Positions 41,904 through 58,659 of a DNA stretch of 64,000 nt are shown here, piece after piece. The DNA is from Pseudomonadota bacterium (GTDB taxonomy: Bacteria > Bdellovibrionota > Bdellovibrionia > Bdellovibrionales > Bdellovibrionaceae), in NCBI GenBank assembly GCA_041178425.1, contig JBEGVH010000040.1, positions 114,998 through 178,997 on the forward strand, read 5' to 3'. Made by a program: the position numbers and the translations under genes. Each line of letters begins with the position of its first letter. The first letter of the stretch is position 1. The notes under the pieces are model-generated. The model was given only the letters and a program-made list of their open reading frames with translations, did no database searches and was not told the origin of the DNA.

Positions 41904-42902
41904 ATGGCAACGATCGATATTCAACAGGCAATGCGAGCCATTGGTCAAAAACAGATCGACCCCCTCTATCTTTTGATCGGAGAAGAAAGATATTTTTCTG
42001 AGAGATGTTTGGCGCAGCTTCGTCATACTTTGGTGAGTGAAGATCTGCGGGAGTTCAACGAGGACCTTTTTTATGCCTCCGATGTAAATATTGAAAAAGT
42101 TATCGACTCTCTCCAGACTTTTCCGGTGATGGCCGAGAAAAGATTGGTCATTTTAAAAGAAGCCCATTTATTGACTGAGAAATCATGGGCCCAATTGGAT
42201 GAGATCAAAGAGTTGAATAAGGATACAACTGTTTTTGTGATTTTGGCTCATCAACTCGATAAGCGTAAGAAATCTATCAAAAAGTGGGTCGACTGGGGGA
42301 CTGTCATCGACTGTGTTACGCCTCAAGAGGCCTCTCGTTCAGGATGGATTCGATCCATGGCCAAAGAAAAGGGTTTAGAGCTTGATAATGAATCTCTCGG
42401 GTATATGGTTCAGATGGGAGCCAATACGTTAGAGGAACTTGATCGTGACTTAGATAAACTGTTTTTGTTTTTTGGCGAACCACGAAAGATCACTATTGGT
42501 GATGTGGCTCGAGTGCTTGAGCGATCAAGAGAAGAGAGCATTTTTTCATTGGCGGAGGCCGTCGCTAAAAAGGATCGACCGCAAGCCCTTTTTCTCTTTC
42601 ACCGATTACATGCTCAAGGTGAGAGCGAAATAGCTTTGGTCGCATTAATTGCTCGCCACCTTCGAATTTTACTCAAGTTAAAAGAAGCCCAGTCTTTGGG
42701 CTTAAAGGGACCTTCGCTCGCGCAAAAAGTGGGGGTTAATAATTACTTTTTATCTAATTATGTACAGCAAAGTTCTCTATGGACGGAAAAATCTCTGGCC
42801 GCTGCCCTCATGTCGTTGGCGGATATCGATCGTCAACTCAAGTCTTCGTCTTTGGCTCCGGATTTGTGGCTAGAGCAGTTTTTGCTTTTCGTGGCTCGTT
42901 AA
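41904..42902 (+). CDS. holA: DNA polymerase III delta subunit
   Basis: YLLIGEE, TFPVMAEKRLV, LDKRKK, DLDKL, IDRQLKSS. Confidence 0.92.
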   Translation: MATIDIQQAMRAIGQKQIDPLYLLIGEERYFSERCLAQLRHTLVSEDLREFNEDLFYASDVNIEKVIDSLQTFPVMAEKRLVILKEAHLLTEKSWAQLDEIKELNKDTTVFVILAHQLDKRKKSIKKWVDWGTVIDCVTPQEASRSGWIRSMAKEKGLELDNESLGYMVQMGANTLEELDRDLDKLFLFFGEPRKITIGDVARVLERSREESIFSLAEAVAKKDRPQALFLFHRLHAQGESEIALVALIARHLRILLKLKEAQSLGLKGPSLAQKVGVNNYFLSNYVQQSSLWTEKSLAAALMSLADIDRQLKSSSLAPDLWLEQFLLFVAR

Positions 42903-42918
42903 TCAATCTATGAGTTTT

Positions 42919-43278
42919 TTAAACAAAGGGTTCGTTGTTCGTTCGAGCCGAAATAAAAGCTCGTATTCGTCGCTTATCTCCAATGGGGAGAGGCAGAAAT
43001 TGGATGCCAAGTAAAATGGGATGAGGGCCTTCATTGGATTTTTTGCTATTTCTAATCTCTCCACGGAGAGAAATCATTTCGTCGCCAGGGATTTTAAAGG
43101 TCACGACCACACCGGATTCGATTGGCAGAGAGCTTGGCCAAAAGAACGACATGCCTCCTTCGCCGAGAGAGCGTGCCTGAGTCACCATATACTGGCCCCG
43201 ATAGAGCACGCCGACCGTACCCGTAAACAGGCGGCGAGGGTACTTTCGCTTAAAGGTTGCCGATTCTGCTGCGCTCAT
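42919..43278 (-). CDS. Stand-alone PilZ domain protein
   Basis: KRKYPRR, SLGEGGM, LGIQF. Confidence 0.8.
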   Translation of the reverse strand: MSAAESATFKRKYPRRLFTGTVGVLYRGQYMVTQARSLGEGGMSFFWPSSLPIESGVVVTFKIPGDEMISLRGEIRNSKKSNEGPHPILLGIQFLPLPIGDKRRIRAFISARTNNEPFV

Positions 43279-43936: not shown

Positions 43937-45577
43937 ATGAATCAGCAAAGTATTGAAGTTACACACCAAGAGGCCAAAAAAAATGTCGTAATTCACGCTC
44001 TTAGCATGGCCTTGGGAACCCTTTCTAGTCGCGTTTTAGGGCTCGTTCGGGACATGGCTTTTGCCGCTCTTTTTCCAAGGGCGGTAACTGATGCATGGAC
44101 CGCCGCATTTCGGCTACCAAATCTCTTTCGACGCCTTTTAGGGGAGGGGTCGCTCTCCATTAGCTTTATTCCTGTGTTTGTTGAGGCAAAATTGGGGGAT
44201 GATCAAAGTCACACTCATCAGGCCTCTAATCTTGTGAATGGCTTTTATACCTGCCTGTTATTGGTTCTTACTTTGTTGACGGCCGGTGGTATCATTGCTG
44301 CGGAGGCTGTTCTCAAGGGGCTCTTAGATCCTGCCTATGTTGCTAATACCGAACAGTTTTTGCTCACGGTTCGAATGGCCAGGATTATGTTCGGATTCAT
44401 TTTTCTGATGAGTCACTTTGCCTATTTTATGGGTATTCTCAATGCTCTGGGTGAGTATTCCTTACCCGCGATGGCTCCTGTTTTTTTTAATGTCGCAATG
44501 ATTGCGTCCACAGTGGTTCCTGCCGATTGGTTCACGAGTCCCGGCGATGGTTTAGCCTGGGGTGTTTTGCTTGGTGGAGTGTGGCAGACGGGTGTTTTGG
44601 TGCCTGCTCTCATAAAGAAAGGCTATTTGCCTCGACCTACCTTGAATTGGAATGTGCCAGGGGTGATGCGGGTTTTTAAGAGTATGGCGCCAGGGCTGAT
44701 TGGGACCGGGTTATTGCAGATCACTACCTTAATAAATCTTCGTTTTGCCAGCCGACTTGGAGAAGGATCAATTTCTTATATCTATTGGGCGGATCGGCTC
44801 TTGGAGCTTCCGCTGTCTTTGGTGGCTGTGAGTTTAGGGACCGCACTTTTGCCCACCCTTTCAAAAATGTGGTCCGAAGGTCACAGATCAAAGCTATTAG
44901 AAACGTCACAGCACTATCTGCGCCTCAATTTGTTTGTTTGTTTGCCGGCAGCGGCGGGCCTTTATTTTCTCTCAGAGCCGATCGTCGAAGTGCTCTTTAG
45001 AAGAGGTCGTTTTTCTGAGGCCGACGTTCAGGCTACGGCCATGGTGGTTAGTATTTATAGTTTTATCTTAATTGCCTCGAGCAGCGTAAGGGTTTTGGTT
45101 CCCATTTATTACGCCATGAAGAATACTTGGTGGCCGGCAACCGTGGGTGCAATCTGTTTGGGAGTTCACATTGTAGTGGCGCCATTTCTCATGGATCGAT
45201 GGGGATTGGGAGGACTTGTGTCATCGTCTTTTGTTAGTGCGAGTCTCAATTTTATTTGTTTAGCTGTACCTATCCGTTGGTGGATAGGGTCCTTCGGGTG
45301 GGGCAGTGTCGCCTCTAGTTTTTTTAGAAACCTATTCGCTTCGGTAGTGATGGGATGGATTGTGTTCTTTATCAATCAAGCCCTTCGACCTCACCTGGGC
45401 ACGGGAGAAGTGGGGCGACTCGCCAACCTCATCATTAGTATTACTGTGGGTGTTCTATTTTTTGTGGCGGTGGCTCGAATTTTACGATCTGAAGAAATGG
45501 AAACAACTTTTAAGACGCTAAAAGATAAAATTTCGAGAAGGTTTGGTAATTCGAAAAAGTTTGCTCAGTTCAAATAA
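43937..45577 (+). CDS. murJ: Lipid II flippase
   Basis: SRVLGLVRD, AFRLPNLFRRLLGEG, YWADRLLELP; divergent from rpsT as usual. Confidence 0.96.
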   Translation: MNQQSIEVTHQEAKKNVVIHALSMALGTLSSRVLGLVRDMAFAALFPRAVTDAWTAAFRLPNLFRRLLGEGSLSISFIPVFVEAKLGDDQSHTHQASNLVNGFYTCLLLVLTLLTAGGIIAAEAVLKGLLDPAYVANTEQFLLTVRMARIMFGFIFLMSHFAYFMGILNALGEYSLPAMAPVFFNVAMIASTVVPADWFTSPGDGLAWGVLLGGVWQTGVLVPALIKKGYLPRPTLNWNVPGVMRVFKSMAPGLIGTGLLQITTLINLRFASRLGEGSISYIYWADRLLELPLSLVAVSLGTALLPTLSKMWSEGHRSKLLETSQHYLRLNLFVCLPAAAGLYFLSEPIVEVLFRRGRFSEADVQATAMVVSIYSFILIASSSVRVLVPIYYAMKNTWWPATVGAICLGVHIVVAPFLMDRWGLGGLVSSSFVSASLNFICLAVPIRWWIGSFGWGSVASSFFRNLFASVVMGWIVFFINQALRPHLGTGEVGRLANLIISITVGVLFFVAVARILRSEEMETTFKTLKDKISRRFGNSKKFAQFK

Positions 45578-47467: not shown

Positions 47468-47505
47468 GTCCTATAGGCTCAACGATCAATTTGGGTGGGG
47501 GCCTA

Positions 47506-48036
47506 ATGAAGATTGAATTCGCTGATGCACTTTTATCGCAAGTTAAAGAGATCGCTCATCTGGTGAATGGCGCTTATCGTGGTGAAGGTTCCAAGATTGG
47601 TTGGACCACCGAGGCCGATCTACTCGATGGCCAGCGTGCCGATGCAGGCCTCATCGCGGCTTTAGTTAATCCTCCAGACTCAAAAATTCTTTTAGCCATC
47701 AGTCAAACATCTCAGCAAGTGATAGGCTGTGTGCATCTTGAAAAACGAAATACCATTATGTATTTGGGAATGTTGGTCGTGATGCCAGGCTTGCAAGCGC
47801 AAGGACTTGGTAAACAGATGATCGTTGAAGCGCAAAAGCAGGCCCATCTTTGGGGGTGTGATGAAATTGAAATGTCAGTTTTATCGGTACGAGCGGAATT
47901 GATCGCTTGGTATGTCAAACAAGGATTTATGCTCACCGGCGAACGGAAGCCATTTCCGTCCCACGATCCTCGATTTGGAATTCCTAAGGTTTCGAATCTT
48001 GAATTTGTGATTTTAAAAAAGAACCTAGCTCGCTAA
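47506..48036 (+). CDS. GNAT family N-acetyltransferase
   Basis: VNGAYRG..GWTTEA, QAQGLGK acetyl-CoA motif, LIAWYVKQGF. Confidence 0.9.
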   Translation: MKIEFADALLSQVKEIAHLVNGAYRGEGSKIGWTTEADLLDGQRADAGLIAALVNPPDSKILLAISQTSQQVIGCVHLEKRNTIMYLGMLVVMPGLQAQGLGKQMIVEAQKQAHLWGCDEIEMSVLSVRAELIAWYVKQGFMLTGERKPFPSHDPRFGIPKVSNLEFVILKKNLAR

Positions 48037-48053
48037 GGACGTTCAAAAACACT

Positions 48054-48875
48054 TCAGTTGGGTTCAAGCTCCCTATCAATAAAGGTTTTAATGGTAGAGC
48101 CGTTCGTAAAAATACTTTGCGTACAATCTGGGGTGCCGCGACTTGTGATACCAACAAGGTAAAGACCATCTGGCGTTTTGATGAACGCTGGGCCCCCTGA
48201 ATCTCCTCGGCAAACACCTGTTCCATTGAATTGATCAATGGAGAACTCGCTCGTCGAATAATGAGGGTTTGTGATGTCGACGATGGCCCATCGTAGGACC
48301 CCTGAACCCTGGGGTTCCTGATTCTGGAAATAGCCAAAACCAACAACCCAAACCGGCATTCCTGTACCAATCACGTCCATGAATTCAAAAACCTCGATCG
48401 GGTTATAGTCGCCAGGAAGCGGGTTGGCTATTTCAACGAGCGCCAAATCAGATCGATTATGTGGGGCTATAGGATCATAATCGGGATGAATAATGACATT
48501 TTTCAAACGATCAAAAGGGCTGTCTGAACGAAAAGTGGTATCAAAAAAAACAAAGTGATTGGTGATAGCGCCGAGAACGCAATGAGCAGCAGTAATAAGG
48601 TGACGAGAGTTGATCACCACGGCTGTGCAAATTGTTTGGCGCTTTTTATCGAATAATCCAACCGTGTGTTTTCGAAGGCTGGAAAACGCTCTGACATTTT
48701 CGCCTCTCAAAATATAGTGAGCGTCTTGGGGTGGAGAAAGTTTTGAGGCAAGTGAGGTGAGAGAACGAAGTTGGCCGCTAGGTGGTGCCGACGCGGGTGC
48801 GCATTGGGTGATCCCCAAAAATAATCCAACCGCGACAATACACAGTAAAAAGAACTGAAGGTGTCGAAGAATCAA
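48054..48875 (-). CDS. Secreted trypsin-like (S1) serine protease
   Basis: TAAHC, DLAL, CRGDSGGP; signal or lipoprotein-like N-terminus. Confidence 0.92.
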   Translation of the reverse strand: MILRHLQFFLLCIVAVGLFLGITQCAPASAPPSGQLRSLTSLASKLSPPQDAHYILRGENVRAFSSLRKHTVGLFDKKRQTICTAVVINSRHLITAAHCVLGAITNHFVFFDTTFRSDSPFDRLKNVIIHPDYDPIAPHNRSDLALVEIANPLPGDYNPIEVFEFMDVIGTGMPVWVVGFGYFQNQEPQGSGVLRWAIVDITNPHYSTSEFSIDQFNGTGVCRGDSGGPAFIKTPDGLYLVGITSRGTPDCTQSIFTNGSTIKTFIDRELEPN

Positions 48876-49005: not shown

Positions 49006-49037
49006 AAAAAAAACGGGGAACCGTTGGTTCCCCGTTT
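49006..49037 (-). terminator. Intrinsic terminator
   Basis: AAACGGGGAACC-gtt-GGTTCCCCGTTT with an A-run on the left. Confidence 0.88.
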
Positions 49038-49061: not shown

Positions 49062-51326
49062 TTAGTTTTGATACATTCGAATGGAATGTAGAACTTTTTC
49101 AATTGGACTGTTGCGTATTAAAAGGCTGTTGATATCCGAATCCACTCGGTAGTCGATAGATTGGCTCACACCATCTTTATTGACGCTGAGGCGCAGTTTA
49201 AAGGGATCTGGAAGCTTAGTGACCTCCACTATCGAGCCTTCCGTGATGGCGCCAAAATTGAGTTGGTACTCAGCGACCCCCACTCCCAGTGTATTTTCTA
49301 CCATTCGTTCCATCGGACGAGCTCCAAACTCAGGGCTTCGGCCATACACCGAAATGAATAATCGCGTGGGAGCGTCAACCACCATATTCCACTCAAAGTT
49401 CTCCTTTATTTTGGCGAGTTTCTTATCCACAAGGATATTGGCAAGCTGACGAAATTCAGTGTCGCTGAACGGTTTAAAAATACTTATCGCATCAAAACGG
49501 TTCAGGAAACTCATTCGAAAGTGCTGCTTTAAATCGGCCATGACGAGCGCTCGGAGATCTGGGTGAGTCGGGTTTTTAAGCACCACATCTGACGCCGCAT
49601 TTGTCGTCATGATAATGAAAGCGCCACGGGCAAAGAGCGGTCTTTGATAGGGGTCGTAAAAAACTCCTTCGTCCATCATGAAGTAAAGCTGATCCAGAAC
49701 CTCGATCGAGGCTTTGTCGATTTCCTCAAAAAGATAGACGGCAAAAGGAGTGTTGGTGAGGTGGCGAGACATGACTTCTTGAAAGTTCTTGAAGCTGCTT
49801 TTCTCTTTGTAAGTGGTCATATCCATGGTGATGAGTTTCATTTGCATGAAATCAGCCATTTTCTTTGCCACGTAGCTTTTGCCAGTTCCTGTGGGACCAG
49901 CAAGTAGGGCCGTCGCCACGGGCTTGTCGTCGGTTCGTCCAGCAACAAACCCATTTTTTGCGAGACGAACGAGGTCTTTCTTGCCTTCCACCACGCCAAC
50001 AACATCGCTATTAAGATTGGCTTCGAGATTTTTGATAACAGAAAAATCGCGATCAATGAACCAAGCAGGGACCTGAGCAATCGTTAGAACAGCTCGTCGT
50101 GCTTCTTCGCGTGTGAAGGTATGCTGTTTGATGACTTTGCCATAGGCTCTCGAAACAACAAAACCCTGATTAGAGCCTGTAGAATCGGAGTTGAGTACGA
50201 TCTTGAGTTTGTTAGTGTAAAAGAACGCTGTTCTTGCGCCAGCGGTGAGTCGACCGGTGAGCCGGGTTAGCGGATTCTGTGGATTGTTCGCATCGTAGAT
50301 GTCGAGGTGATCAAAGTTATTTTCAATGTCGAAAGAGCTAAATTCGAGCTGAATAGCATTGTAGCCGGGAGCTTCGATAAAGTACTCCCTGCGGCTATCA
50401 GGAGGGTAAGGATGTTCTGATTCAAAGCTAATTTTTAATTCTTCCGGTTTAGGCTCTTCACTCGCTCCCGTCCCTCGAACAAGAGCATTCAGCACTGAAA
50501 TTGTTCGGTCGGGCTCTTGGCGATTGGGCTGATAATAAGCAATATTTTTTACGATGTACTGCAAATCTTTATTGTTGAGTTTGAGATTGGGGTATAGCAA
50601 TCGAAGATAAGCCTCTGACAATTGCAGAGTTTGCTCCTGATTCAGCGGTGGCAAAATAAGTCGATCGCCGAAGGCCTCAAGAACGTATGAATTTCGCGAT
50701 CGAATAATTTCGTTGTATTCGAATTTGTCAATGAAAGCAATCGAACGCATTCGTCCGGCGCTAATATTCGCAACATACTCACGCTCAATTCCGGTTTCGT
50801 CATTACTATGCGAACCAATTCCAATGAGAGCACTCACAGAGTTAAGGTACATTATGACGTTTTTGGAATCTGAGGGCGCTAAAATTTTTTGTTGCCAGTA
50901 TTGGTCAACATCGCCCACGTAGCGGTGACCAGACTCTATTTTGCTCACATTGATTTCGGCATGCCACATATTACTCGGACATTGACTGCCGACTCGGCCC
51001 GAAGCGAGTCTTGCGAAAAGATAAAGATAAGCCTGTGAGGGTTCCCCAACAACCAACACCGATTTATTTTGCTGACTACCGCAAACGACCTCTTCGATTC
51101 TTTGAGCCAAATCGTCGAAGAGAGAGACTTCTTTCATGAATGTTGTTGGCTTTTTCCAAACCTCTGAAATTTGATAGGTGGTGTTTCCTGGCCCCATAAT
51201 AAAGCCAGACTCCTTCAAGGTGTTGAGATCCGGATCGGTTCCTGGTCTCGATTGCGCCCAAGTGATCGACGACACTAATGCCATCGCCCCGAAGAGTGTT
51301 TTTGATACTCTTGCTAAATTCCCCAT
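49062..51326 (-). CDS. ClpA/B-like AAA+ protein with signal peptide, degenerate NBD1, inserted CUB domain and NBD2
   Basis: NBD1 remnants (VLVVGEP, GHRYVGD, RQEPDRTI); CUB (SEHPYP...LEFSSFDIENNFDHLDIYD...LNSDSTGSNQGF); NBD2 (GPTGTGKS, FEEIDKA, IIMTTN, FLNRFD, FGARPM). Confidence 0.85.
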   Translation of the reverse strand: MGNLARVSKTLFGAMALVSSITWAQSRPGTDPDLNTLKESGFIMGPGNTTYQISEVWKKPTTFMKEVSLFDDLAQRIEEVVCGSQQNKSVLVVGEPSQAYLYLFARLASGRVGSQCPSNMWHAEINVSKIESGHRYVGDVDQYWQQKILAPSDSKNVIMYLNSVSALIGIGSHSNDETGIEREYVANISAGRMRSIAFIDKFEYNEIIRSRNSYVLEAFGDRLILPPLNQEQTLQLSEAYLRLLYPNLKLNNKDLQYIVKNIAYYQPNRQEPDRTISVLNALVRGTGASEEPKPEELKISFESEHPYPPDSRREYFIEAPGYNAIQLEFSSFDIENNFDHLDIYDANNPQNPLTRLTGRLTAGARTAFFYTNKLKIVLNSDSTGSNQGFVVSRAYGKVIKQHTFTREEARRAVLTIAQVPAWFIDRDFSVIKNLEANLNSDVVGVVEGKKDLVRLAKNGFVAGRTDDKPVATALLAGPTGTGKSYVAKKMADFMQMKLITMDMTTYKEKSSFKNFQEVMSRHLTNTPFAVYLFEEIDKASIEVLDQLYFMMDEGVFYDPYQRPLFARGAFIIMTTNAASDVVLKNPTHPDLRALVMADLKQHFRMSFLNRFDAISIFKPFSDTEFRQLANILVDKKLAKIKENFEWNMVVDAPTRLFISVYGRSPEFGARPMERMVENTLGVGVAEYQLNFGAITEGSIVEVTKLPDPFKLRLSVNKDGVSQSIDYRVDSDINSLLIRNSPIEKVLHSIRMYQN

Positions 51327-51347
51327 AATTCCCCTCCAAAAAACGGT

Positions 51348-51998
51348 CTACTGACCGCTTAGTTTCAAAATCTTTAGAATTAACACGCGAAGACTGGTGG
51401 TCATGAAATCTTGACCCACCCGAAATGCGAGTACCTTTGATGCGGAGTCTCGATGACGAAGAAGAAAAGGTCTTACAAATTCGAAAAGAATAAATTTAAC
51501 ACTAGCATTGTAGGCGAAATCAAAGACCAGGCGCCTCATGAGCACTAAGGCAACGCCCTCCATCACATAGGTGCTCAGAGCTTGTGAAAGCAAAGAGTTA
51601 ATGGTTCCGAATGAAATAAAAAAGACGAAACGATTGAGTCGAGAGGTAATAAAAAATACCGGTCCCCCTAGTAAGGAGGCAATAAGCGTCATTACGATGT
51701 TTATGAGTGATTGGCGGTGAACGCGCTCACGACCATCGGAGGATTTCACGATGAAGGCCTCATTATGGCTCTCACTTAAAATAGAAATAACCGTTCTAGA
51801 ACTGATCTCAGAGACCGTCGTGAGGGATGTGTTGACTAGCGCTAAAAACAAGATGGTGGAGCGATGGAGTTTCCAACAGTCGAGCCATTTCATGGCTGGG
51901 GTGGCGATGATCCACCAGAGTTTAGAAAAAAAGTAGTCTAAGAAGCTTTGTGCCAGACGCAATCCCTGCGTCAATGCCTGTACCAACCAGGGCCTCAC
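51348..51998 (-). CDS. Hypothetical membrane protein (start uncertain)
   Basis: Several hydrophobic segments; fills the gap in a co-oriented gene run. Confidence 0.55.
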   Translation of the reverse strand: MRPWLVQALTQGLRLAQSFLDYFFSKLWWIIATPAMKWLDCWKLHRSTILFLALVNTSLTTVSEISSRTVISILSESHNEAFIVKSSDGRERVHRQSLINIVMTLIASLLGGPVFFITSRLNRFVFFISFGTINSLLSQALSTYVMEGVALVLMRRLVFDFAYNASVKFILFEFVRPFLLRHRDSASKVLAFRVGQDFMTTSLRVLILKILKLSGQ

Positions 51999-52106: not shown

Positions 52107-53987
52107 CTAAAGGCTATTATCGATCATTCCATTAATAAAATACTGTCGATGCGCCTTCCAGGCGGGTAGAAGCGGGTGCGGGCTCGTTGGAGGCTCTTCG
52201 TCAGTCGGAAGAGTCAGTGAACGCCCTTTTTCAATGTAAATCTCTTGGCCATCAAGGTAGAGGTTCACATTGCGCCTTCCTGTTTTTAAAAGGGAGCGAC
52301 CGATCAGAGAGCTGGTCTTTGGCAGAGCAAAGAGATCTTCCAAGGTGGGAAGCAAATCGATGTGTTGAACGGGTTCTTCGAGATCCATCAAGTGTCTCTC
52401 TTCAGTGAGCTGGGCTCCTGGAAAATACATGAGCATTGGCACTCGAAAACTTCCAATGGAAGTTTGGTAAACCGAAAGATAACTTTTTGAAGTATGGTCG
52501 GCCGTAAAAATAAAAAGAGTGTCTTCAAACCACTTCGACCGGCGAGAGGCTTTAAAAAAGTCCCTTAGCATGGCGTCGGTATAAGCTATTGACTGCAAAA
52601 TGGGGATTGGGCCTGTTGGAAGTTGATCTCGATAAACCTCAGGAACTTTGAAAGGATGGTGCGAGCTTAAAGAGAAAAAAACAGCAAAAAAAGGCGAAGG
52701 TTCCTTATCGAGGGTTTCTCGGAAAAAATTTAAAAACGGTCCGTCCCAGATTCCCCAAGTTCCGTCGTCATCGCCCTCAGCAGAATACTCGTTTTTTCCA
52801 AAATATTTTTGAAAACCCAATCTTTGCGTGAACTCCTCAAAAAACATAGTGCCGTTGGCACCCCCATGGAAAAATCCAGTCCAAACACCTTTTTTAGCCA
52901 GTTCAAACCCTAAGGAGGGAAGGTTGTTTGTTTGAAACGAACTCGTCAGAAAAGGTTCGTCTGTGAGAGAGGGAATTCCTGCGAGCAAAGAGGGAAGGGC
53001 TTCAATTGAGCGTCGACCATTAGCAAAGCTATTTTCAAAGTATATTGAACTTGGTTGTAAGGAATCAAGAAATGGCGTGAACGATTTTTTTTCAAATTTA
53101 AGATTTTTGTGGTCAAGTCCCGTGTATTCCAAGCCAAAAGATTCCAAAACAAAGAGAACAACGTTCTTGGGTTTTTTACTCCACGGAAATAAGTTTTGGC
53201 CTTCGCCATTGGAATTGAGGAGGCCGTTAAATTGCTCTTGGTTGTTGAAATAATCAATTCGCTTGAGGCGTTTTTTTTGTAAGGAGTGCAGAGTCGTAAA
53301 GCTACTATTGAGCGTTAGGTGGGTCAGCCGAAAATCGCTACTCATCGCCGTTGCATGGGCTAGTTCAAGAGGTTTTGGTTGAGTTCCTCCGCGCGCTCCA
53401 ACAATCATCCCAAGAAGAAGCACCGAAGTGAGAATAAGACGGTGCCGAGGGCGACTGTAGACTTTTAAAAGAGGAGATTGTTCATTGAACCGTGGATTCC
53501 AACTGTGGATCGAACGTACGTACAACCATAGCAGGCTTACATTGATAATAATTAACAACCAATAGGTCGTCCAAAGAGCTCCAATTTTTCCCTTGGTTTC
53601 GCCGATAAGATAAAGACTATCGGTTGTCATTCGTCGGCCTGAGAAATGGATAAACTCCAAATCGATAATGTTTAGAACAAGAAAGGGAATATGAATAAAA
53701 AGAAATGTCATTCGAAGAACAAGTTCTTTGTATTTCTTTATTTTGGAGGGCCAAGGGACTATAGCTCCGATCAGGGGAATGAACGAGAGCCAAGCGAGGA
53801 TCGAAAGATCAAAACGAGCCCCTTGCAGAAAGGCCTTGATGAGTGAAGACAGGGAGGCGTGTTCAAACCAAACCTTCCAGTTCCAGGTGAGAAATTCAAT
53901 TCTAAGAAAAAAATAAAAGGCCAGCGTTGCTAGTAGCCAAACCAGAGTTTTAAGAAAGATTGAAAAGTCTGATTTGGCGACCGACAT
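52107..53987 (-). CDS. LTA synthase family / sulfatase-fold phosphoglycerol transferase
   Basis: 5 TM segments then NVVLFVLES, NGRRSIE, SSHHPF, TADH. Confidence 0.9.
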   Translation of the reverse strand: MSVAKSDFSIFLKTLVWLLATLAFYFFLRIEFLTWNWKVWFEHASLSSLIKAFLQGARFDLSILAWLSFIPLIGAIVPWPSKIKKYKELVLRMTFLFIHIPFLVLNIIDLEFIHFSGRRMTTDSLYLIGETKGKIGALWTTYWLLIIINVSLLWLYVRSIHSWNPRFNEQSPLLKVYSRPRHRLILTSVLLLGMIVGARGGTQPKPLELAHATAMSSDFRLTHLTLNSSFTTLHSLQKKRLKRIDYFNNQEQFNGLLNSNGEGQNLFPWSKKPKNVVLFVLESFGLEYTGLDHKNLKFEKKSFTPFLDSLQPSSIYFENSFANGRRSIEALPSLLAGIPSLTDEPFLTSSFQTNNLPSLGFELAKKGVWTGFFHGGANGTMFFEEFTQRLGFQKYFGKNEYSAEGDDDGTWGIWDGPFLNFFRETLDKEPSPFFAVFFSLSSHHPFKVPEVYRDQLPTGPIPILQSIAYTDAMLRDFFKASRRSKWFEDTLFIFTADHTSKSYLSVYQTSIGSFRVPMLMYFPGAQLTEERHLMDLEEPVQHIDLLPTLEDLFALPKTSSLIGRSLLKTGRRNVNLYLDGQEIYIEKGRSLTLPTDEEPPTSPHPLLPAWKAHRQYFINGMIDNSL

Positions 53988-53995
53988 TAGGTGAC

Positions 53996-55414
53996 CTATT
54001 CCTCAGAGCTTTCGAGCATTATAAAGCCCATTCCGCCCTCTCGCTGTATGCGAAGGGTATTGGTACCTTTTCGCAAAGCCTTTGTGGCCTCTGAGGTCGA
54101 TCGCACGCGTTTGCGATTCACATCGTAAATGACATCGCCGGGGCGCAGTCCAGCGTAGGCCGCTGGGCTTCCGGTCATTATCTCTGTCACCACGGGTAAG
54201 CCCGTTAATTCTTCCGATAGGCCCCACTGTTTGATAATTAACTTATCAACAGCTGTGATTTTGAAGCCCAGGTTGAAAGGAGTTTCCTGACCCTTAACTT
54301 TTTGTTCTTTTGTCGCAAGAGGTTTCTTGGCTTCAGGTCGTTCGGCAACCGCTATCTCGAGAGTTTTTTCTTTGTTTTCTCTTAGAATCTTAACCTTCGA
54401 GACTTGTCCAATAGGACTTCCTGCGACGGCATTCATAAATTCGACCAGGGATTTAATTTTTTTGCCATTAAATTCAAGAACCACGTCGTAGGTTTCAATT
54501 CCGCTCTTGTCTGCCGGGCTATCGGGGACCACTTGAGTGATGATAACCCCTTCGTCCCTCTTTATTCCTAGGTGGGCTGCTGCGCGAGGATTCAATTCAT
54601 CGAGGCCCACCCCAATATAACCTTGGCGAACGTGACCATTTGATTCTAAATCTTTAATCACCACTTTGACGTCATCAATGGGGATTGCAAATCCGATTCC
54701 CTGTGCGCGGGCATCAATCGCTGAATTAACCCCAATTACAAAGCCTTTGGAATTGACGAGGGGTCCGCCGGAGTTGCCTGGATTGATGCTTGCATCCGTT
54801 TGTAGGAATGGAAAACGATTGAGTTCACCAATCTCCCGCCCCTTTGCGGAAATGATTCCTTTGGTCATCGTGTGGCCATGCCCATAGGGATTCCCAAAGG
54901 CGGCAACCCATTCACCCACTTCGACATCGGCTGATGTACCAAGGGGCGCCGTTGGTAGTTTTTGTTTGGAGTTGATCTTGATGAGGGCGATGTCTGTGCG
55001 GGAGTCGCGACCAATGACCTCGGCCTTGAATTCCTTCTGAGAACCCTCTGTTAGTTGAACCAAGATAACATCGGCGCCATCGATCACATGGTTGTTTGTA
55101 ATAATAAGCCCATCTTCTCGAATAATAAAACCAGTTCCCAGCGCTGTTTGGGGTTGTGCCTTCGGTATATTAAACTGTTGCCCGTAAAATTGTTCCAACA
55201 ACTCAAGCATTGGGTCGTTCATTTTTCGGCCTTTTGGCGTGGTAGATGTGGAAATGTTAACAACCGCCGGATTAATAGCTCGTGCCAATTCAACAAAAAG
55301 ATTCTCTGGTAAAGGGTTGCCTAATTTTAGCGTTGGCGATTTTGTTTGCGCCAAACCAAGGGGTGAAAGACAGGCAATGAGAATAAACACTATCAGGCTT
55401 CTGAATGGTTGCAT
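53996..55414 (-). CDS. degP: HtrA/DegP (Do) serine protease with two PDZ domains
   Basis: TNNHV, TDIAL, QTDASINPGNSGGP; AAGGAG RBS before ATG 55414. Confidence 0.92.
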   Translation of the reverse strand: MQPFRSLIVFILIACLSPLGLAQTKSPTLKLGNPLPENLFVELARAINPAVVNISTSTTPKGRKMNDPMLELLEQFYGQQFNIPKAQPQTALGTGFIIREDGLIITNNHVIDGADVILVQLTEGSQKEFKAEVIGRDSRTDIALIKINSKQKLPTAPLGTSADVEVGEWVAAFGNPYGHGHTMTKGIISAKGREIGELNRFPFLQTDASINPGNSGGPLVNSKGFVIGVNSAIDARAQGIGFAIPIDDVKVVIKDLESNGHVRQGYIGVGLDELNPRAAAHLGIKRDEGVIITQVVPDSPADKSGIETYDVVLEFNGKKIKSLVEFMNAVAGSPIGQVSKVKILRENKEKTLEIAVAERPEAKKPLATKEQKVKGQETPFNLGFKITAVDKLIIKQWGLSEELTGLPVVTEIMTGSPAAYAGLRPGDVIYDVNRKRVRSTSEATKALRKGTNTLRIQREGGMGFIMLESSEE

Positions 55415-55567
55415 TTGTTTCTCCTTTTTTATTAAGATTTGGATTTGAATCCAAATGTCAATTACATCAAACAACAAAAAAACGCCAGAGGCGTTCGTCT
55501 TCCCGAATTAGATCTCAACTATTATAATTTTGTTGACTAGTAAAAGACAAGTGGGGCCAGTTTCTTT

Positions 55568-56785: not shown

Positions 56786-57787
56786 ATGATCGAAAGTAAT
56801 AACGTTGACATTATGGCCCTGAACGCAGCCGTGAAGCAAGAAAGTCAATTCTTTGAAAAAATGCTAGCTGAAATCGGCAAGGTTGTCGTTGGACAGCACG
56901 AGATGGTTCAGGGGATCGTGATGGGATTGCTCACGGGTGGCCACGTCCTTCTTGAAGGTGTTCCTGGTCTGGCTAAAACATTGACGATATCAACTGTTTC
57001 CAAATCGATCTCCTTAGATTTTCAAAGGATTCAGTTTACTCCTGATTTATTACCGACGGATCTCATTGGCACCATGATTTTTAATCCGAAGAGTGGAGAA
57101 TTTGCTCCCCGAAAAGGGCCCATTTTTACGAATATTGTTCTTGCTGACGAGATAAATAGGGCTCCGGCGAAGGTGCAGAGTGCGCTCCTTGAGGCCATGG
57201 CCGAAAAGCAAGTCACCATTGGTGAGGTGTCCTATAAGTTAGAGAATCCGTTTTTGGTTCTGGCCACGCAGAATCCCTTGGAGCAAGAAGGGACTTACCC
57301 TCTCCCTGAGGCGCAAATGGATCGGTTCATGTTTAAAATTAACGTAGAGTATCCGACCAAAACAGAAGAACTAGAAATTATTAATCGCATGTCAAAAAAC
57401 GAAAAACCAATGGTTCAGCCAGTGATCTCTCGTGAGGATCTTATTCGTGCTTCGCAAAGGGTTGATCAGATCTTTGTCGACACAAAGATTAAAAACTACA
57501 TCGTTGAATTAGTGATGGCGACGCGAGAGCCAGCAGAGCATGGACTTGGACAGTTGAAGGACCTTATTCAAGTGGGAGGGAGTCCCCGGGCGAGTTTGAG
57601 CTTGATTCGCGCAGGCAAAGCCCATGCCTTTTTGCAAGGACGAGGCTATGTGACCGTCGAAGATATCAAAGCGGTAGTTTATCACGTGCTCAGGCATCGC
57701 CTTATTTTAACTTACGAAGCCGAGGCCGAAAACATGACGACTGATCATGTGATCGCCGAAGTTTTGCGACAGGTGGAGCTTCAGTGA
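56786..57787 (+). CDS. moxR: MoxR family AAA+ ATPase
   Basis: GVPGLAKT, RIQFTPDLLP, ADEINRAPAKVQSALLEAM, LPEAQMDRF. Confidence 0.95.
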   Translation: MIESNNVDIMALNAAVKQESQFFEKMLAEIGKVVVGQHEMVQGIVMGLLTGGHVLLEGVPGLAKTLTISTVSKSISLDFQRIQFTPDLLPTDLIGTMIFNPKSGEFAPRKGPIFTNIVLADEINRAPAKVQSALLEAMAEKQVTIGEVSYKLENPFLVLATQNPLEQEGTYPLPEAQMDRFMFKINVEYPTKTEELEIINRMSKNEKPMVQPVISREDLIRASQRVDQIFVDTKIKNYIVELVMATREPAEHGLGQLKDLIQVGGSPRASLSLIRAGKAHAFLQGRGYVTVEDIKAVVYHVLRHRLILTYEAEAENMTTDHVIAEVLRQVELQ

Positions 57788-58659
57788 GTTTACCTCCTGA
57801 GATTCTTAAAAAAGTAAAGCTATTAGAGATTTCAACTCGCAAATTGGTTAATAATCTTTTTGCGGGCGAGTACCATACTGCCTTTAAGGGGCAGGGAATG
57901 ACTTTTGCTGATTTTCGCGAATACGTGCCAGGAGATGATATTCGTCATATTTCTTGGCCGTTGACCGCACGTGCCGGAAAGCCCTTTATTAAAAAATTCG
58001 ATGAAGAGCGCGAACTCACTTTGATTCTTTTGGTGGACGTCAGTGGCTCCACCGATTTTGGCAGTCGCGATCTCTTTAAAGGTGAGGTCATGGCCCATCT
58101 CGCAGCCCTTTTAGCCTTCAGTGCTGCTAAGAATAATGACCAAATTGGTCTTTTGCTTTTTTCAGATCAGGTGGAGCATTTTGTTCCCCCTAAAAAAGGC
58201 CACGGGCATGTCCAAAGACTATTGAGAGACTTGTATTACCACGAACCAAAGAGTCGCGAGACCCGATTGGAGCCAGCCCTTCAGTTTTTGCAGGGAGTTC
58301 TCAAAAAAAGAGCGGCGATTTTTATCATGAGTGATTTTTTTGATTCCCGTTACGACGAATCTTTGAGGATGCTGGGGCGAAAGCACGATGTCGTTTCGGT
58401 TGTCGTTCGAGACCCGCTGGAGCAGAGCTGGCCTTCGATGGGTTTGGTGGATCTCTGTGATAATGAGACCGGCGAAATTGTAACAGTTGATACGAGTTCT
58501 GCGGTTTTTAGGCAGCAGTGGTCTGATTTATATAAAGAAAAAGAACTCGAGAGGGATAAGCTTTTGCGCAAAGCTCAGGTTGATCGTGTAGATGTATGGC
58601 TTGATAAAGATTTTGTGGATCCCCTTGTAAAGTATTTTAAGAGTAGGCAACGCCGATGA
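57784..58659 (+). CDS. DUF58 vWA-like protein
   Basis: GQGMTFADFREYVPGDDIR, VDVSGS, MSDF. Confidence 0.92.
   Translation: MSLPPEILKKVKLLEISTRKLVNNLFAGEYHTAFKGQGMTFADFREYVPGDDIRHISWPLTARAGKPFIKKFDEERELTLILLVDVSGSTDFGSRDLFKGEVMAHLAALLAFSAAKNNDQIGLLLFSDQVEHFVPPKKGHGHVQRLLRDLYYHEPKSRETRLEPALQFLQGVLKKRAAIFIMSDFFDSRYDESLRMLGRKHDVVSVVVRDPLEQSWPSMGLVDLCDNETGEIVTVDTSSAVFRQQWSDLYKEKELERDKLLRKAQVDRVDVWLDKDFVDPLVKYFKSRQRR

Follow-up and report, generated by a model that had tools for sequence, protein, structure and literature searches.

The window, i.e., the whole stretch of 64,000 nucleotides that was analysed, encodes at 49062-51326 an uninterrupted open reading frame of 754 amino acids on the minus strand, whose product we refer to as the ATPase. 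The plus-strand frame of this interval has many stops upon translation and gives no coding reading; the coordinates in the earlier note stand, and the strand, absent from it, is minus. A partner gene lies upstream across an intergenic gap of 21 nucleotides, and a terminator-like hairpin 25 nucleotides 3' of the ATPase stop codon ends the two-gene unit. The ATPase gene and the upstream partner gene form a two-gene operon with the following features:

51348..51998, minus strand: partner gene P0121, about 212-216 aa, upstream of the ATPase gene (synteny)
51331..51337, minus strand: Shine-Dalgarno-like GGAGGGG, 4 nucleotides 5' of the ATG at 51326, read from the sequence
49062..51326, minus strand: whole ATPase gene P0001, 754 aa (ORF, translation, Pfam, AF2 model, Foldseek)
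51255..51326, minus strand: predicted Sec signal peptide, residues 1-24, with R6 and K9 in the n-region, a hydrophobic core and T-W-A followed by Q-S
51132..51254, minus strand: conserved mature N-segment, residues 25-65 (PDL..L..SG.IMGPG...W), replacing the Clp N-domain (alignments)
50451..51131, minus strand: degenerate NBD1, residues 66-292, with the Clp D1 fold and neither the Walker A Gly-Lys-Thr nor the Walker B Asp-Glu
50133..50441, minus strand: CUB domain insert, residues 296-398, at the position of the ClpB/ClpC M-domain; Pfam CUB above cut-off
49485..50132, minus strand: linker helices and large subdomain of NBD2, residues 399-614 (Pfam, alignments)
49221..49457, minus strand: D2-small (lid), residues 624-702, with sensor-2 G668-A-R670; Pfam ClpB_D2-small (PF10431) above cut-off
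49062..49220, minus strand: family-specific C-terminal extension, residues 703-754 plus stop, two strands and a helix in the model
49011..49037, minus strand: intrinsic-terminator-like hairpin, a 12-bp stem, 7 of its pairs G-C, followed by a run of T

The protein thus reads, from its N-terminus, as a signal peptide, N-segment, pseudo-NBD1, CUB, NBD2, D2-small and C-terminal extension. Its AF2 model (pLDDT 87.6) matches the protomers of ClpA, ClpC and ClpB in Foldseek searches over 664-820 columns (E 6e-34 and weaker), and the family profile aligns residues 66-696 with residues 176-839 of ClpB. The NCBIfam Clp models match the C-terminal half only, and the equivalog cut-offs are missed for ClpA (142 vs 993 bits), ClpB (115 vs 1232) and ClpV (95 vs 885). 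The N-segment has no Pfam match; likewise, there is no match to the Clp N-terminal domain (PF02861), which is also missing in the alignment with ClpA and ClpC.

NBD1 is homologous to the cognate Clp module, with the family profile matching ClpC 186-455 (i-E 5e-7). Alignment with canonical ClpA and ClpC shows GEPSQAY at the Walker A position where Clp proteins have GE[AP]GVGKT, and MYLNSVS at the Walker B position in place of LFIDEIH, a loss that holds across the family. NBD1 retains the pore-loop motif Y136-V-G138, and some grip on a polypeptide may therefore be possible. It also houses two invariant cysteines, C82 and C116: a census found them kept in 43 of 43 family members, the mature chain being free of further cysteine in 39 of the 43.

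The inserted domain matches Pfam CUB (PF00431) at residues 303-391, where its 29.4 bits exceed the cut-off of 21.4; a precomputed PF00431 assignment exists for 54 of 64 family members. A profile of 12 insert sequences, when run against the PDB, recovered cubilin as the best match (E 3.6e-26), along with PCPE-1, neuropilin, enteropeptidase, C1r and MASP. The AF2 model of the whole ATPase has strands throughout 295-397 (pLDDT about 75-91). The PDRTI motif aligns with PDKAI of Clp, and the insert occupies the position where ClpC carries its M-domain. Residues Y307, E335, D339 and D381 align with the Tyr/Glu/Asp/Asp of cubilin-type CUBs, which we take to be the calcium site; all 12 insert sequences have the first three, while D381 is kept in 90% of them or more. 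Judged by its sequence, the insert is a true CUB domain of the calcium type, for which calcium binding is predicted. No cysteine occurs between residues 288 and 404.

In NBD2, Pfam AAA_2 (PF07724) is matched at residues 468-614 (E 1e-20) above its cut-off, as are CUB and ClpB_D2-small, the other two domains named for checking in the earlier note. The motifs comprise Walker A (G477-S484), Walker B (F533-E-E-I-D537), sensor-1 (T574/N576) and the arginine finger R610. Residues K483, E535, N576, R610 and R670 are invariant in all 43 family members, together with FEEID, T574 and G668-A-R670. With its catalytic set complete down to an arginine finger of its own, NBD2 is expected to hydrolyse ATP in a homo-oligomer. 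Two loops have been lost in comparison with ClpA and ClpC: a deletion of 12 residues takes out GAPPGYVG, i.e., the GYVG pore loop (the same gap measures 10 + 2 residues against T. thermophilus ClpB), and the ClpP-docking [LIV]-G-[FL] (VGF/IGF) loop is deleted. Both deletions would count against a threading motor and against a ClpP partner. The C-terminal extension is missing from ClpA and ClpC in the alignment.

The N-termini of the family are variable in sequence and constant in their n/h/c pattern. A simple n/h/c heuristic, which is the basis of the signal-peptide call, is passed by 58 of the 60 full-length members as against 0 of 56 canonical Clp controls, and the two members that fail are gene calls shortened at the N-terminus. 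This suggests that the ATPase is exported by the Sec pathway. The only other CUB proteins of this genome are two subtilases, both with signal-like N-termini. As a counterpoint to export, the bacterial periplasm is generally considered free of ATP, whereas purifying selection clearly acts on the catalytic site. The anatomy described in the earlier note is borne out by these comparisons: the Sec signal peptide as a predicted pattern, the missing Clp N-domain, the recognisable but degenerate NBD1, the CUB domain in the M-domain place and the intact catalytic motifs of NBD2. Absent from that note were the loop losses in NBD2, the two invariant cysteines, the partner gene, and the CUB-less Verrucomicrobia homologs with their transporter.

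A homolog search recovered about 64 full-length relatives of the ATPase at 40-82% identity, and the bit score falls from 494 to 118 between them and ordinary Clp proteins. The family is sharply set apart from the latter and is without a curated model; our literature searches found no paper on an AAA+ protein of bacteria that is exported and Clp-like or bears a CUB domain. In a scan of contigs with the ATPase, the Walker motifs pulled in many ordinary Clp genes; the family members recovered by it are L006-L011 and L014 only, with 37-46% identity and a match extending into the N-terminal region. The architecture presented in the earlier note proved to be conserved and no one-off. Across the phylum, the gene was detected in only 11 of 401 sampled genomes and not in the 26 sampled from the biggest genus within its family, which places it outside the core predation genes. 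Named relatives carry the labels Bdellovibrionales or Oligoflexales, and five marine MAGs labelled Verrucomicrobia hold CUB-less homologs with signal peptides. The C82/C116 pair is not conserved in a Verrucomicrobia-labelled homolog, and the CUB insert is cleanly missing from the protein P0050.

The partner co-occurs with the ATPase: of the 11 genomes with an ATPase gene, 10 have it, in 9 cases directly upstream, and among 390 genomes lacking the ATPase only 2 do. In one ATPase-bearing genome (G199) it is encoded elsewhere, and in another (G274, 97% complete) none was found. The AF2 model of the partner P0121 (pLDDT 92.2) has six helices, and the protein is arginine-rich and without an evident signal peptide. 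Pfam and NCBIfam returned no match to P0121, nor did PADLOC to the partner, and a profile search recovered 63 relatives, none tied to a named family. Comparison with the ESM Atlas gave low scores only, and Foldseek found no PDB match to the model at E 0.001 or better. A structural search with VIA-align recovered an ECF S-component among other small membrane bundles, its best Z of 8.7 falling in a range that the tool's own guidance gives as common for helical bundles. The family-averaged hydropathy peaks at a borderline 1.5-1.6 (Kyte-Doolittle), and three homologs have no segment above 1.6 on this scale; the partner is probably membrane-embedded. Four longer proteins that carry a partner-like C-terminal region are free of Pfam domains, and the one compared with the ATPase, P0183, does not resemble it. 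A complex prediction for the mature ATPase with the partner gave a score of 0.00, which is no verdict and counts neither for nor against contact.

Within the window, genes for a trypsin-like and an HtrA-like protease flank the operon, and the terminator-like hairpin stands between the operon and the trypsin gene. A conserved protease neighbourhood was considered and rejected, as trypsin, HtrA and sulfatase genes recur in 0 of 13 related loci.

We propose, with moderate confidence, that the ATPase is an exported Hsp100/Clp-derived AAA+ switch or remodeller with a single active ring, which is Torsin-like and paired with the upstream helical protein. Under this proposal, a two-tier AAA+ protein of Hsp100/Clp descent would leave the cytoplasm via the Sec pathway. 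The first tier would be a pseudo-ATPase scaffold that retains an aromatic pore-loop motif, and the second, NBD2, would be the sole ATPase, hydrolysing ATP as a homo-oligomer. The CUB domain in place of the coiled coil would take hold of a ligand by one of its basic side chains, by analogy to cubilin and the C1r/C1s-type CUBs. Like Torsin, the protein would serve as a local remodeller or as a switch gated by ATP, with no processive threading and no protease partnership, and would act together with the helical, probably membrane-bound protein encoded upstream. The analysis demonstrates the anatomy of the domains, their conservation, the operon and the co-occurrence; export, oligomerisation, calcium binding, contact with the partner and the switch mechanism are inferences. 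Bacterial AAA+ motors are cytoplasmic according to the textbooks, and periplasmic quality control is taught as being ATP-independent. A conserved Clp derivative with a clear predicted export signal and a strictly selected catalytic site leaves two choices: extracytoplasmic ATP-driven protein machines exist in bacteria, or the export prediction fails for this family.

A bolder version, which we consider unlikely, is that some bacteria possess a periplasmic ATP-driven AAA+ machine fed with ATP by the membrane protein of the adjacent gene. In the Verrucomicrobia-labelled lineage, the feeder would be an ATP:ADP-antiporter-like transporter, which is encoded 27-34 nucleotides downstream in both of the two loci with enough flank; one of the two transporters reaches 32 bits with the Pfam TLC model, whose cut-off is 21. 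In the Bdellovibrio-like lineages the six-helix partner would then serve as an anchor or as a novel conduit for nucleotides. In this genome no TLC transporter was matched, although the 14 control genomes gave none either; the Verrucomicrobia-type transporter has its nearest relative here in a generic MFS protein encoded elsewhere in the genome, and of 5 other genomes with the ATPase, 2 show weak C-terminal TLC matches. ATP feeding, if true, would overturn the view of a periplasm without an ATP economy, and the antiporter-like neighbour in the CUB-less clade opens the ATP supply to direct testing.

It is similarly improbable, in our estimate, that the ATPase is exported without being a machine, either sensing leaked ATP (from the cell's own damage or from lysed neighbours) and signalling to the membrane partner, or serving as a nucleotide-loaded scaffold or holdase of one turnover. 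A compartment that is normally poor in ATP, the missing threading loop and the pairing with a probable membrane protein would all suit such a role, and there is a precedent in Lig E, a periplasm-targeted ATP-dependent bacterial enzyme with a signal peptide (10.64898/2026.03.22.713542, PMC10799422). However, invariance extends to the Walker B glutamate and to sensor-1, the arginine finger and sensor-2 alike, as one would expect of repeated hydrolysis rather than of binding alone.

The earlier note had inferred a secreted remodeller that may work in prey contents. In the fuller form of this view, an unfoldase or disaggregase leaving the predator would run on the ATP left in prey contents and unfold prey proteins ahead of secreted proteases, with the CUB domain picking the substrates. 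The predicted export signal and intact NBD2, the aromatic pore-loop motif kept in NBD1, the protease genes beside the operon and the labels of the named relatives are in line with this proposal, which we nonetheless regard as unlikely. It is unsupported because NBD2, the only ring capable of hydrolysis, is without the GYVG loop that drives Hsp100 threading; moreover, the protease neighbours do not recur in related loci and lie, in the case of the trypsin gene, beyond a terminator, the gene was found in few of the sampled genomes of the phylum, and signal-bearing homologs occur in the marine MAGs labelled Verrucomicrobia.

Least probable of all, and in our view very unlikely, is that the hydrophobic N-terminus is a membrane anchor or partner-docking helix holding the ATPase on the cytoplasmic face, where it would act with the upstream membrane protein as an odd yet cytoplasmic relative of Clp. 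The ATP at hand there would fit the strictly conserved catalytic site, and the partner is without an evident signal peptide; against this reading stand the short hydrophobic cores (median uncharged run of 17 residues), the positive n-region with a small-x-small site in 58 of 60, a charge greater on the N-side than the C-side, placing the N-end inside, in 60 of 60, a lipobox-like L-I-G-C in one member, and the two invariant cysteines and calcium-type CUB, which fit an extracytoplasmic protein.

Returning to the proposed Torsin-like switch, we compared it with known systems. Like ClpB, Hsp104 and ClpC, the ATPase has two stacked AAA+ modules of the same fold with a D2-small lid, sequence homology in D2 (E 1e-28 to 1e-50) and an NBD1 lid that is interrupted by an insertion at the same site. 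Unlike them, it has no N-domain, no Walker A/B in NBD1 and no D2 pore loop, bears a CUB domain instead of the coiled coil and has a predicted N-terminal export signal. It can be seen as a natural experiment in Hsp100 design, with a dead ring, a coiled coil exchanged for a CUB and a pore loop lost. The closest match by both NCBIfam and Foldseek is ClpA, from which it differs in having no ClpP-docking VGF/IGF loop. The PADLOC defence ATPases DolB and PDC-M37B were rejected as relatives, since they match only the generic D2 region at no more than 46.8 bits and the partner has no match.

The CUB domain shares the aligned Tyr, Glu, Asp and Asp with the calcium-binding CUBs of cubilin, C1r/C1s, MASP, PCPE-1 and neuropilin. 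Animal CUBs have two conserved disulfides; unlike them, the present domain is bacterial, has no disulfide cysteines and is embedded in an AAA+ lid. Lig E differs from the ATPase in its unrelated fold; in addition, a single prior adenylation is possible for a ligase, while an AAA+ ring depends on a continuing supply of ATP. Plasmodium HSP101 of the PTEX translocon is an Hsp100 of the ClpB type that is secreted and works in an extracytoplasmic compartment, as is predicted for the ATPase, and the family profile matches its structure 6e10 (E 2e-32). HSP101 works in the parasitophorous vacuole and threads cargo with both rings active and with pore loops, and it has no CUB domain.

The loss of the GYVG loop from NBD2 has a parallel in Torsin, which is not known to have pore-loop aromatics. 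The Pfam Torsin model (PF06309) matches the ATPase at residues 431-497 only, with 19.9 bits (E 8.5e-4) against a cut-off of 27. In the reports on Torsin with LAP1/LULL1 (PMC4358337, PMC4999309), Torsin is an animal AAA+ protein of the ER lumen with a membrane-bound partner, and the ATPase resembles it in having a D2-like AAA+ module behind a signal sequence, a predicted location outside the cytosol and a probable membrane partner. The arginine finger of Torsin comes from its cofactor LAP1, according to PMC4358337, whereas the ATPase has its own invariant R610 (FLNRFD). Torsin has a single module, while here a pseudo-NBD1 lies in the same chain as NBD2, and the six-helix partner, unlike that of Torsin, is not AAA-like. 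The parallel with this eukaryotic system could inform the mechanisms of non-threading AAA+ proteins.

The ATPase is encoded by a single unbroken ORF of 754 aa at 49062-51326. These boundaries agree with those in the earlier note, with the gene lying on the minus strand: on translation, the plus-strand frame of this interval is not open and is crowded with stops. It is framed by two signals:

ending 4 nt short of the ATG at 51326, minus strand: ribosome-binding site GGAGGGG, read from the sequence
49037-49011, minus strand: strong terminator-like hairpin, 12-bp stem with 7 G-C pairs, then a T-run

The spacing of the GGAGGGG motif supports the ATG at 51326 and, with it, translation of the N-terminal hydrophobic segment; the hairpin begins 25 nt past the stop codon. 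Pfam searches recovered over their cut-offs all three domains that had been surmised from the sequence, and no Clp_N domain was found, in line with the previous claim that it is missing:

aa 303-391: CUB, 29.4 bits (cut-off 21.4)
aa 468-614: AAA_2, E 1e-20
aa 624-702: ClpB_D2-small

With the NCBIfam ClpA, ClpB and ClpV models, matches are confined to the C-terminal half and stay far under the cut-offs (for ClpA, 142 against 993 bits). A confident AlphaFold2 model (mean pLDDT 87.6, pTM 0.72), for which 43 family sequences were used, was aligned by Foldseek across 664-820 columns with protomers of ClpA, ClpC and ClpB (E down to 6e-34), and therefore both AAA+ tiers are present as folds. The family profile also gave a significant match of NBD1 to ClpC D1 (i-E 5e-7), and aa 66-696 align in one stretch with residues 176-839 of T. 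thermophilus ClpB. Taken together, Pfam, the model, the alignments and the family profile confirm and extend the architecture described in the earlier note.

The motifs of the two nucleotide-binding domains were compared using an alignment of the family with three ClpA and two ClpC proteins (A5), and their conservation was taken from the 43-sequence family alignment (A1). In NBD1, the Walker A position reads GEPSQAY against GE[AP]GVGKT in Clp, and the Walker B position MYLNSVS against LFIDEIH. These replacements extend across the family, bearing out the degeneracy first suspected in this one protein, and would leave NBD1 family-wide incapable of the usual ATP binding or hydrolysis. The aromatic pore-loop motif Y136-V-G138 of NBD1 is kept in the family, with Y136 and G138 staying invariant on inclusion of the Clp proteins. 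NBD2 is the one conserved catalytic ring: its Walker A lysine K483, the FEEID motif with E535, T574/N576, R610 and G668-A-R670 are invariant in 43/43 sequences (A1), as expected from the intact Walker A, sensor-1, arginine finger and sensor-2 proposed for it before. It has lost two elements that the first reading missed, one for threading and one for ClpP docking. The GYVG pore-loop segment is deleted, with a gap of 10 + 2 residues relative to T. thermophilus ClpB and of 12 residues relative to ClpA and ClpC (A5), and so is the loop with the VGF/IGF tripeptide (A5), the docking element of ClpA and ClpC on ClpP. The model has a helix at residues 509-525, starting straight after a Tyr-Lys-Glu-Lys stretch, so that no protruding loop would be left in NBD2.

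The PDRTI motif of the ATPase aligns with PDKAI of Clp (A5), and directly after it comes an insert of ~100 residues, at the place that holds the M-domain in ClpC and nothing in ClpA. A profile of the insert by itself, made from 12 sequences, matched cubilin among solved structures (E 3.6e-26), as well as the CUB domains of PCPE-1, neuropilin-1, enteropeptidase, C1r and MASP-1/2. Its position, the Pfam match and this profile all uphold the idea of a CUB at the M-domain site, and by these comparisons the insert is a genuine CUB that forms a module of its own. A precomputed Pfam CUB match is present in 54/64 family members, and one member of 646 aa (P0050) is without exactly this module, query residues 1-302 and 401-734 flanking the gap. 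In the insert alignment (A4), Y307, E335 and D339 occur in 12/12 sequences, and at least 90% of them have D381. The four positions are aligned with a Tyr, Glu, Asp and Asp in cubilin, residues that make up the Ca2+ site with which CUBs of this type hold on to a ligand lysine or arginine. By this alignment, the ATPase CUB would be of the calcium type, with a predicted Ca2+ site. Unlike animal CUBs, it has zero cysteines. The only other CUB matches in the genome are two subtilases (Peptidase_S8; L004:1492-3201 and L005:1489-3120, both minus strand) with a C-terminal CUB and signal-like N-termini.

The N-termini of the family vary in sequence and share their layout: a positive start is followed by a short hydrophobic core, and a small-x-small site stands a few residues ahead of the conserved mature N-terminus. 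A simple scoring rule, heuristic in nature, calls the previously proposed signal peptide in 58/60 full-length members and in 0/56 canonical Clp controls from the same search; the two failing members are gene calls that start inside the hydrophobic core. The N-side charge exceeds the C-side charge in 60/60 members, which predicts an N-in, C-out orientation. In P0064, a divergent member of 708 aa without a CUB match, the signal segment ends in a lipobox-like L-I-G-C, suggestive of a variant with a lipid anchor. C82 and C116 are kept in 43/43 aligned members, 39 of which have no further cysteine in ~730 mature residues, a pattern typical of exported proteins with a structural disulfide and pointing to a putative one here; a Verrucomicrobia-labelled homolog without C82 counts against the general validity of the pair. 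This pattern, along with the confinement of the other CUBs of the genome to subtilases with signal-like N-termini, lends indirect support to export. The earlier interpretation of a secreted remodeller acting in prey contents is partly upheld: export out of the cytoplasm is likely on computational grounds, and the unfolding of prey contents is doubtful.

A word-indexed search recovered 64 full-length relatives, of about 740-790 aa and with 40-82% identity, beyond which the score drops from 494 to 118 bits and ordinary ClpA/ClpC matching D2 only begin. By these sequence criteria the relatives are a distinct conserved family, named in source records only as "AAA family ATPase" or, automatically, "ClpA". 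Its distribution is patchy: it is present in 3/5 genomes of the window's own genus (the two lacking it are 94% and 81% complete), was found in 0/20 other genera of the same family and 0/16 genomes from other families of the order, and occurs in 11/401 genomes and 7/203 genera across the phylum sample. The named contigs bearing members are MAGs labelled Oligoflexales and, drawn from different studies, five labelled Verrucomicrobia.

The ATPase gene forms a two-gene unit with a partner gene, in the following neighbourhood:

41904-42902, plus strand: DNA polymerase III delta subunit
42919-43278, minus strand: PilZ-domain protein
43937-45577, plus strand: MurJ flippase
47491-48036, plus strand: GNAT acetyltransferase
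48054-48875, minus strand: trypsin-like protease, flanking the operon
51348-51998, minus strand: partner gene, directly upstream of the ATPase gene, 21-nt gap
52107-53987, minus strand: sulfatase-family protein, 626 aa, flanking the operon
53996-55477, minus strand: HtrA/DegP-like protease with two PDZ domains, flanking the operon
56786-58659, plus strand: MoxR-type AAA_3 ATPase, then a DUF58/VWA protein

The first four are ordinary housekeeping neighbours, and the last two genes are the usual MoxR-VWA pair, unrelated to the ATPase finding. The trypsin-like, sulfatase-family and HtrA-like genes were rejected as conserved neighbours since none recurs in 13 related loci; the partner ORF, about 212-226 aa long, is alone in recurring there. 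Counted in the same 401-genome sample, the partner profile has a strong match (E 9e-54 or better) in 12 genomes. These include 10 of the 11 with the ATPase, the partner being directly upstream in 9; one genome (G199) has two copies, both elsewhere, and in another (G274) no partner was found. Only 2/390 genomes without the ATPase have it, one copy with a stop codon. The pair spans five families, in a sample whose related genomes are not independent.

Against 1.84 billion representatives, the partner profile gave 63 matches at E 0.001 or better, which by this measure makes for a small, isolated family. The partner protein (P0121) had no match in Pfam, NCBIfam or PADLOC, and six longer profile matches that were scanned had no Pfam domain. 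Its model is confident (pLDDT 92.2) and consists of six long helices plus a hairpin; invariant residues, polar and charged, recur at a spacing of four (E64, R68, Q96, R123, Q139, R156, R176, R193). Structure searches with it gave nothing decisive, the best rows being small integral-membrane bundles, several of them ECF S-components, at Z up to 8.7, a value common for helical bundles. As its hydropathy is borderline for transmembrane helices, the partner is only likely to be a membrane protein. A weak partner-like region is also seen near the C-terminus of 560-770 aa proteins (P0181-P0184 and those of six genomes of one genus, g62 of family f18; E 1e-8 to 1e-10 in the genomes); these are without a Pfam domain, and P0183 has a signal-like N-terminal segment.

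The CUB-less homologs in Verrucomicrobia-labelled MAGs have clear signal peptides too. In the two such loci with enough downstream sequence, the next gene, on the same strand and 27-34 nt downstream, encodes a multi-pass transporter of 449-467 aa:

L010:6404-7807, plus strand: transporter gene after a CUB-less homolog
L009:7809-9158, plus strand: transporter gene after a CUB-less homolog

The L010 transporter scores 32.2 bits against a cut-off of 21 on Pfam TLC (ATP/ADP transporter) and 33.9 against 387 on TIGR00769 (NTP/NDP exchange transporter); that of L009 reaches neither and has only a sub-threshold MFS_1 match (30.2 against 33.4 bits). A metagenome protein collection gave 457 matches to the L010 transporter, the best 120 of the 457 being 90-100% identical, and the relatives listed with the same precomputed Pfam domain and the JGI name "AAA family ATP:ADP antiporter" stand at 90-91% identity. 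These matches hint weakly at an ATP:ADP-antiporter-like protein. TLC had no match in the window's own genome, where a generic MFS elsewhere is the only relative of that transporter, although the control genomes gave none either; the partner gene had no credible match in the four Verrucomicrobia-labelled genomes searched. An exported ATPase beside a nucleotide-exchanger-like gene is a weak if pointed coincidence and might be a slender lead on the problem of ATP supply.

We propose that the ATPase would cross the inner membrane by Sec and fold outside, with the Clp-like tiers driving assembly and ATP cycling taking place in NBD2. The regulatory coiled coil of ClpB is the part that talks to Hsp70; at this site, the calcium-type CUB might couple ligand capture to the state of the ATPase. 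Because NBD2 is without its pore loop, a switch or local remodeller, the mode attributed to Torsin, would be more likely than a processive unfoldase. A search of the open-access literature and bioRxiv for bacterial exported Clp-like or CUB-bearing AAA+ proteins found no paper on them. With its localisation and mechanism argued computationally, there is a genuine possibility that the family points to bacterial use of ATP outside the cytoplasm.

The ATPase is homologous to the class I Hsp100 proteins, yet fails several defining features of ClpA, ClpB and ClpC, and so we do not file it as any of these. ATP-dependent enzymes of such kind, including AAA+ proteins, are as a rule cytosolic. There are three known exceptions to which the working of the ATPase may best be likened: Torsin with LAP1/LULL1 (PMC4358337, PMC4999309), Plasmodium HSP101 in PTEX, and Lig E, a periplasm-targeted ATP-dependent ligase (10.64898/2026.03.22.713542, PMC10799422).
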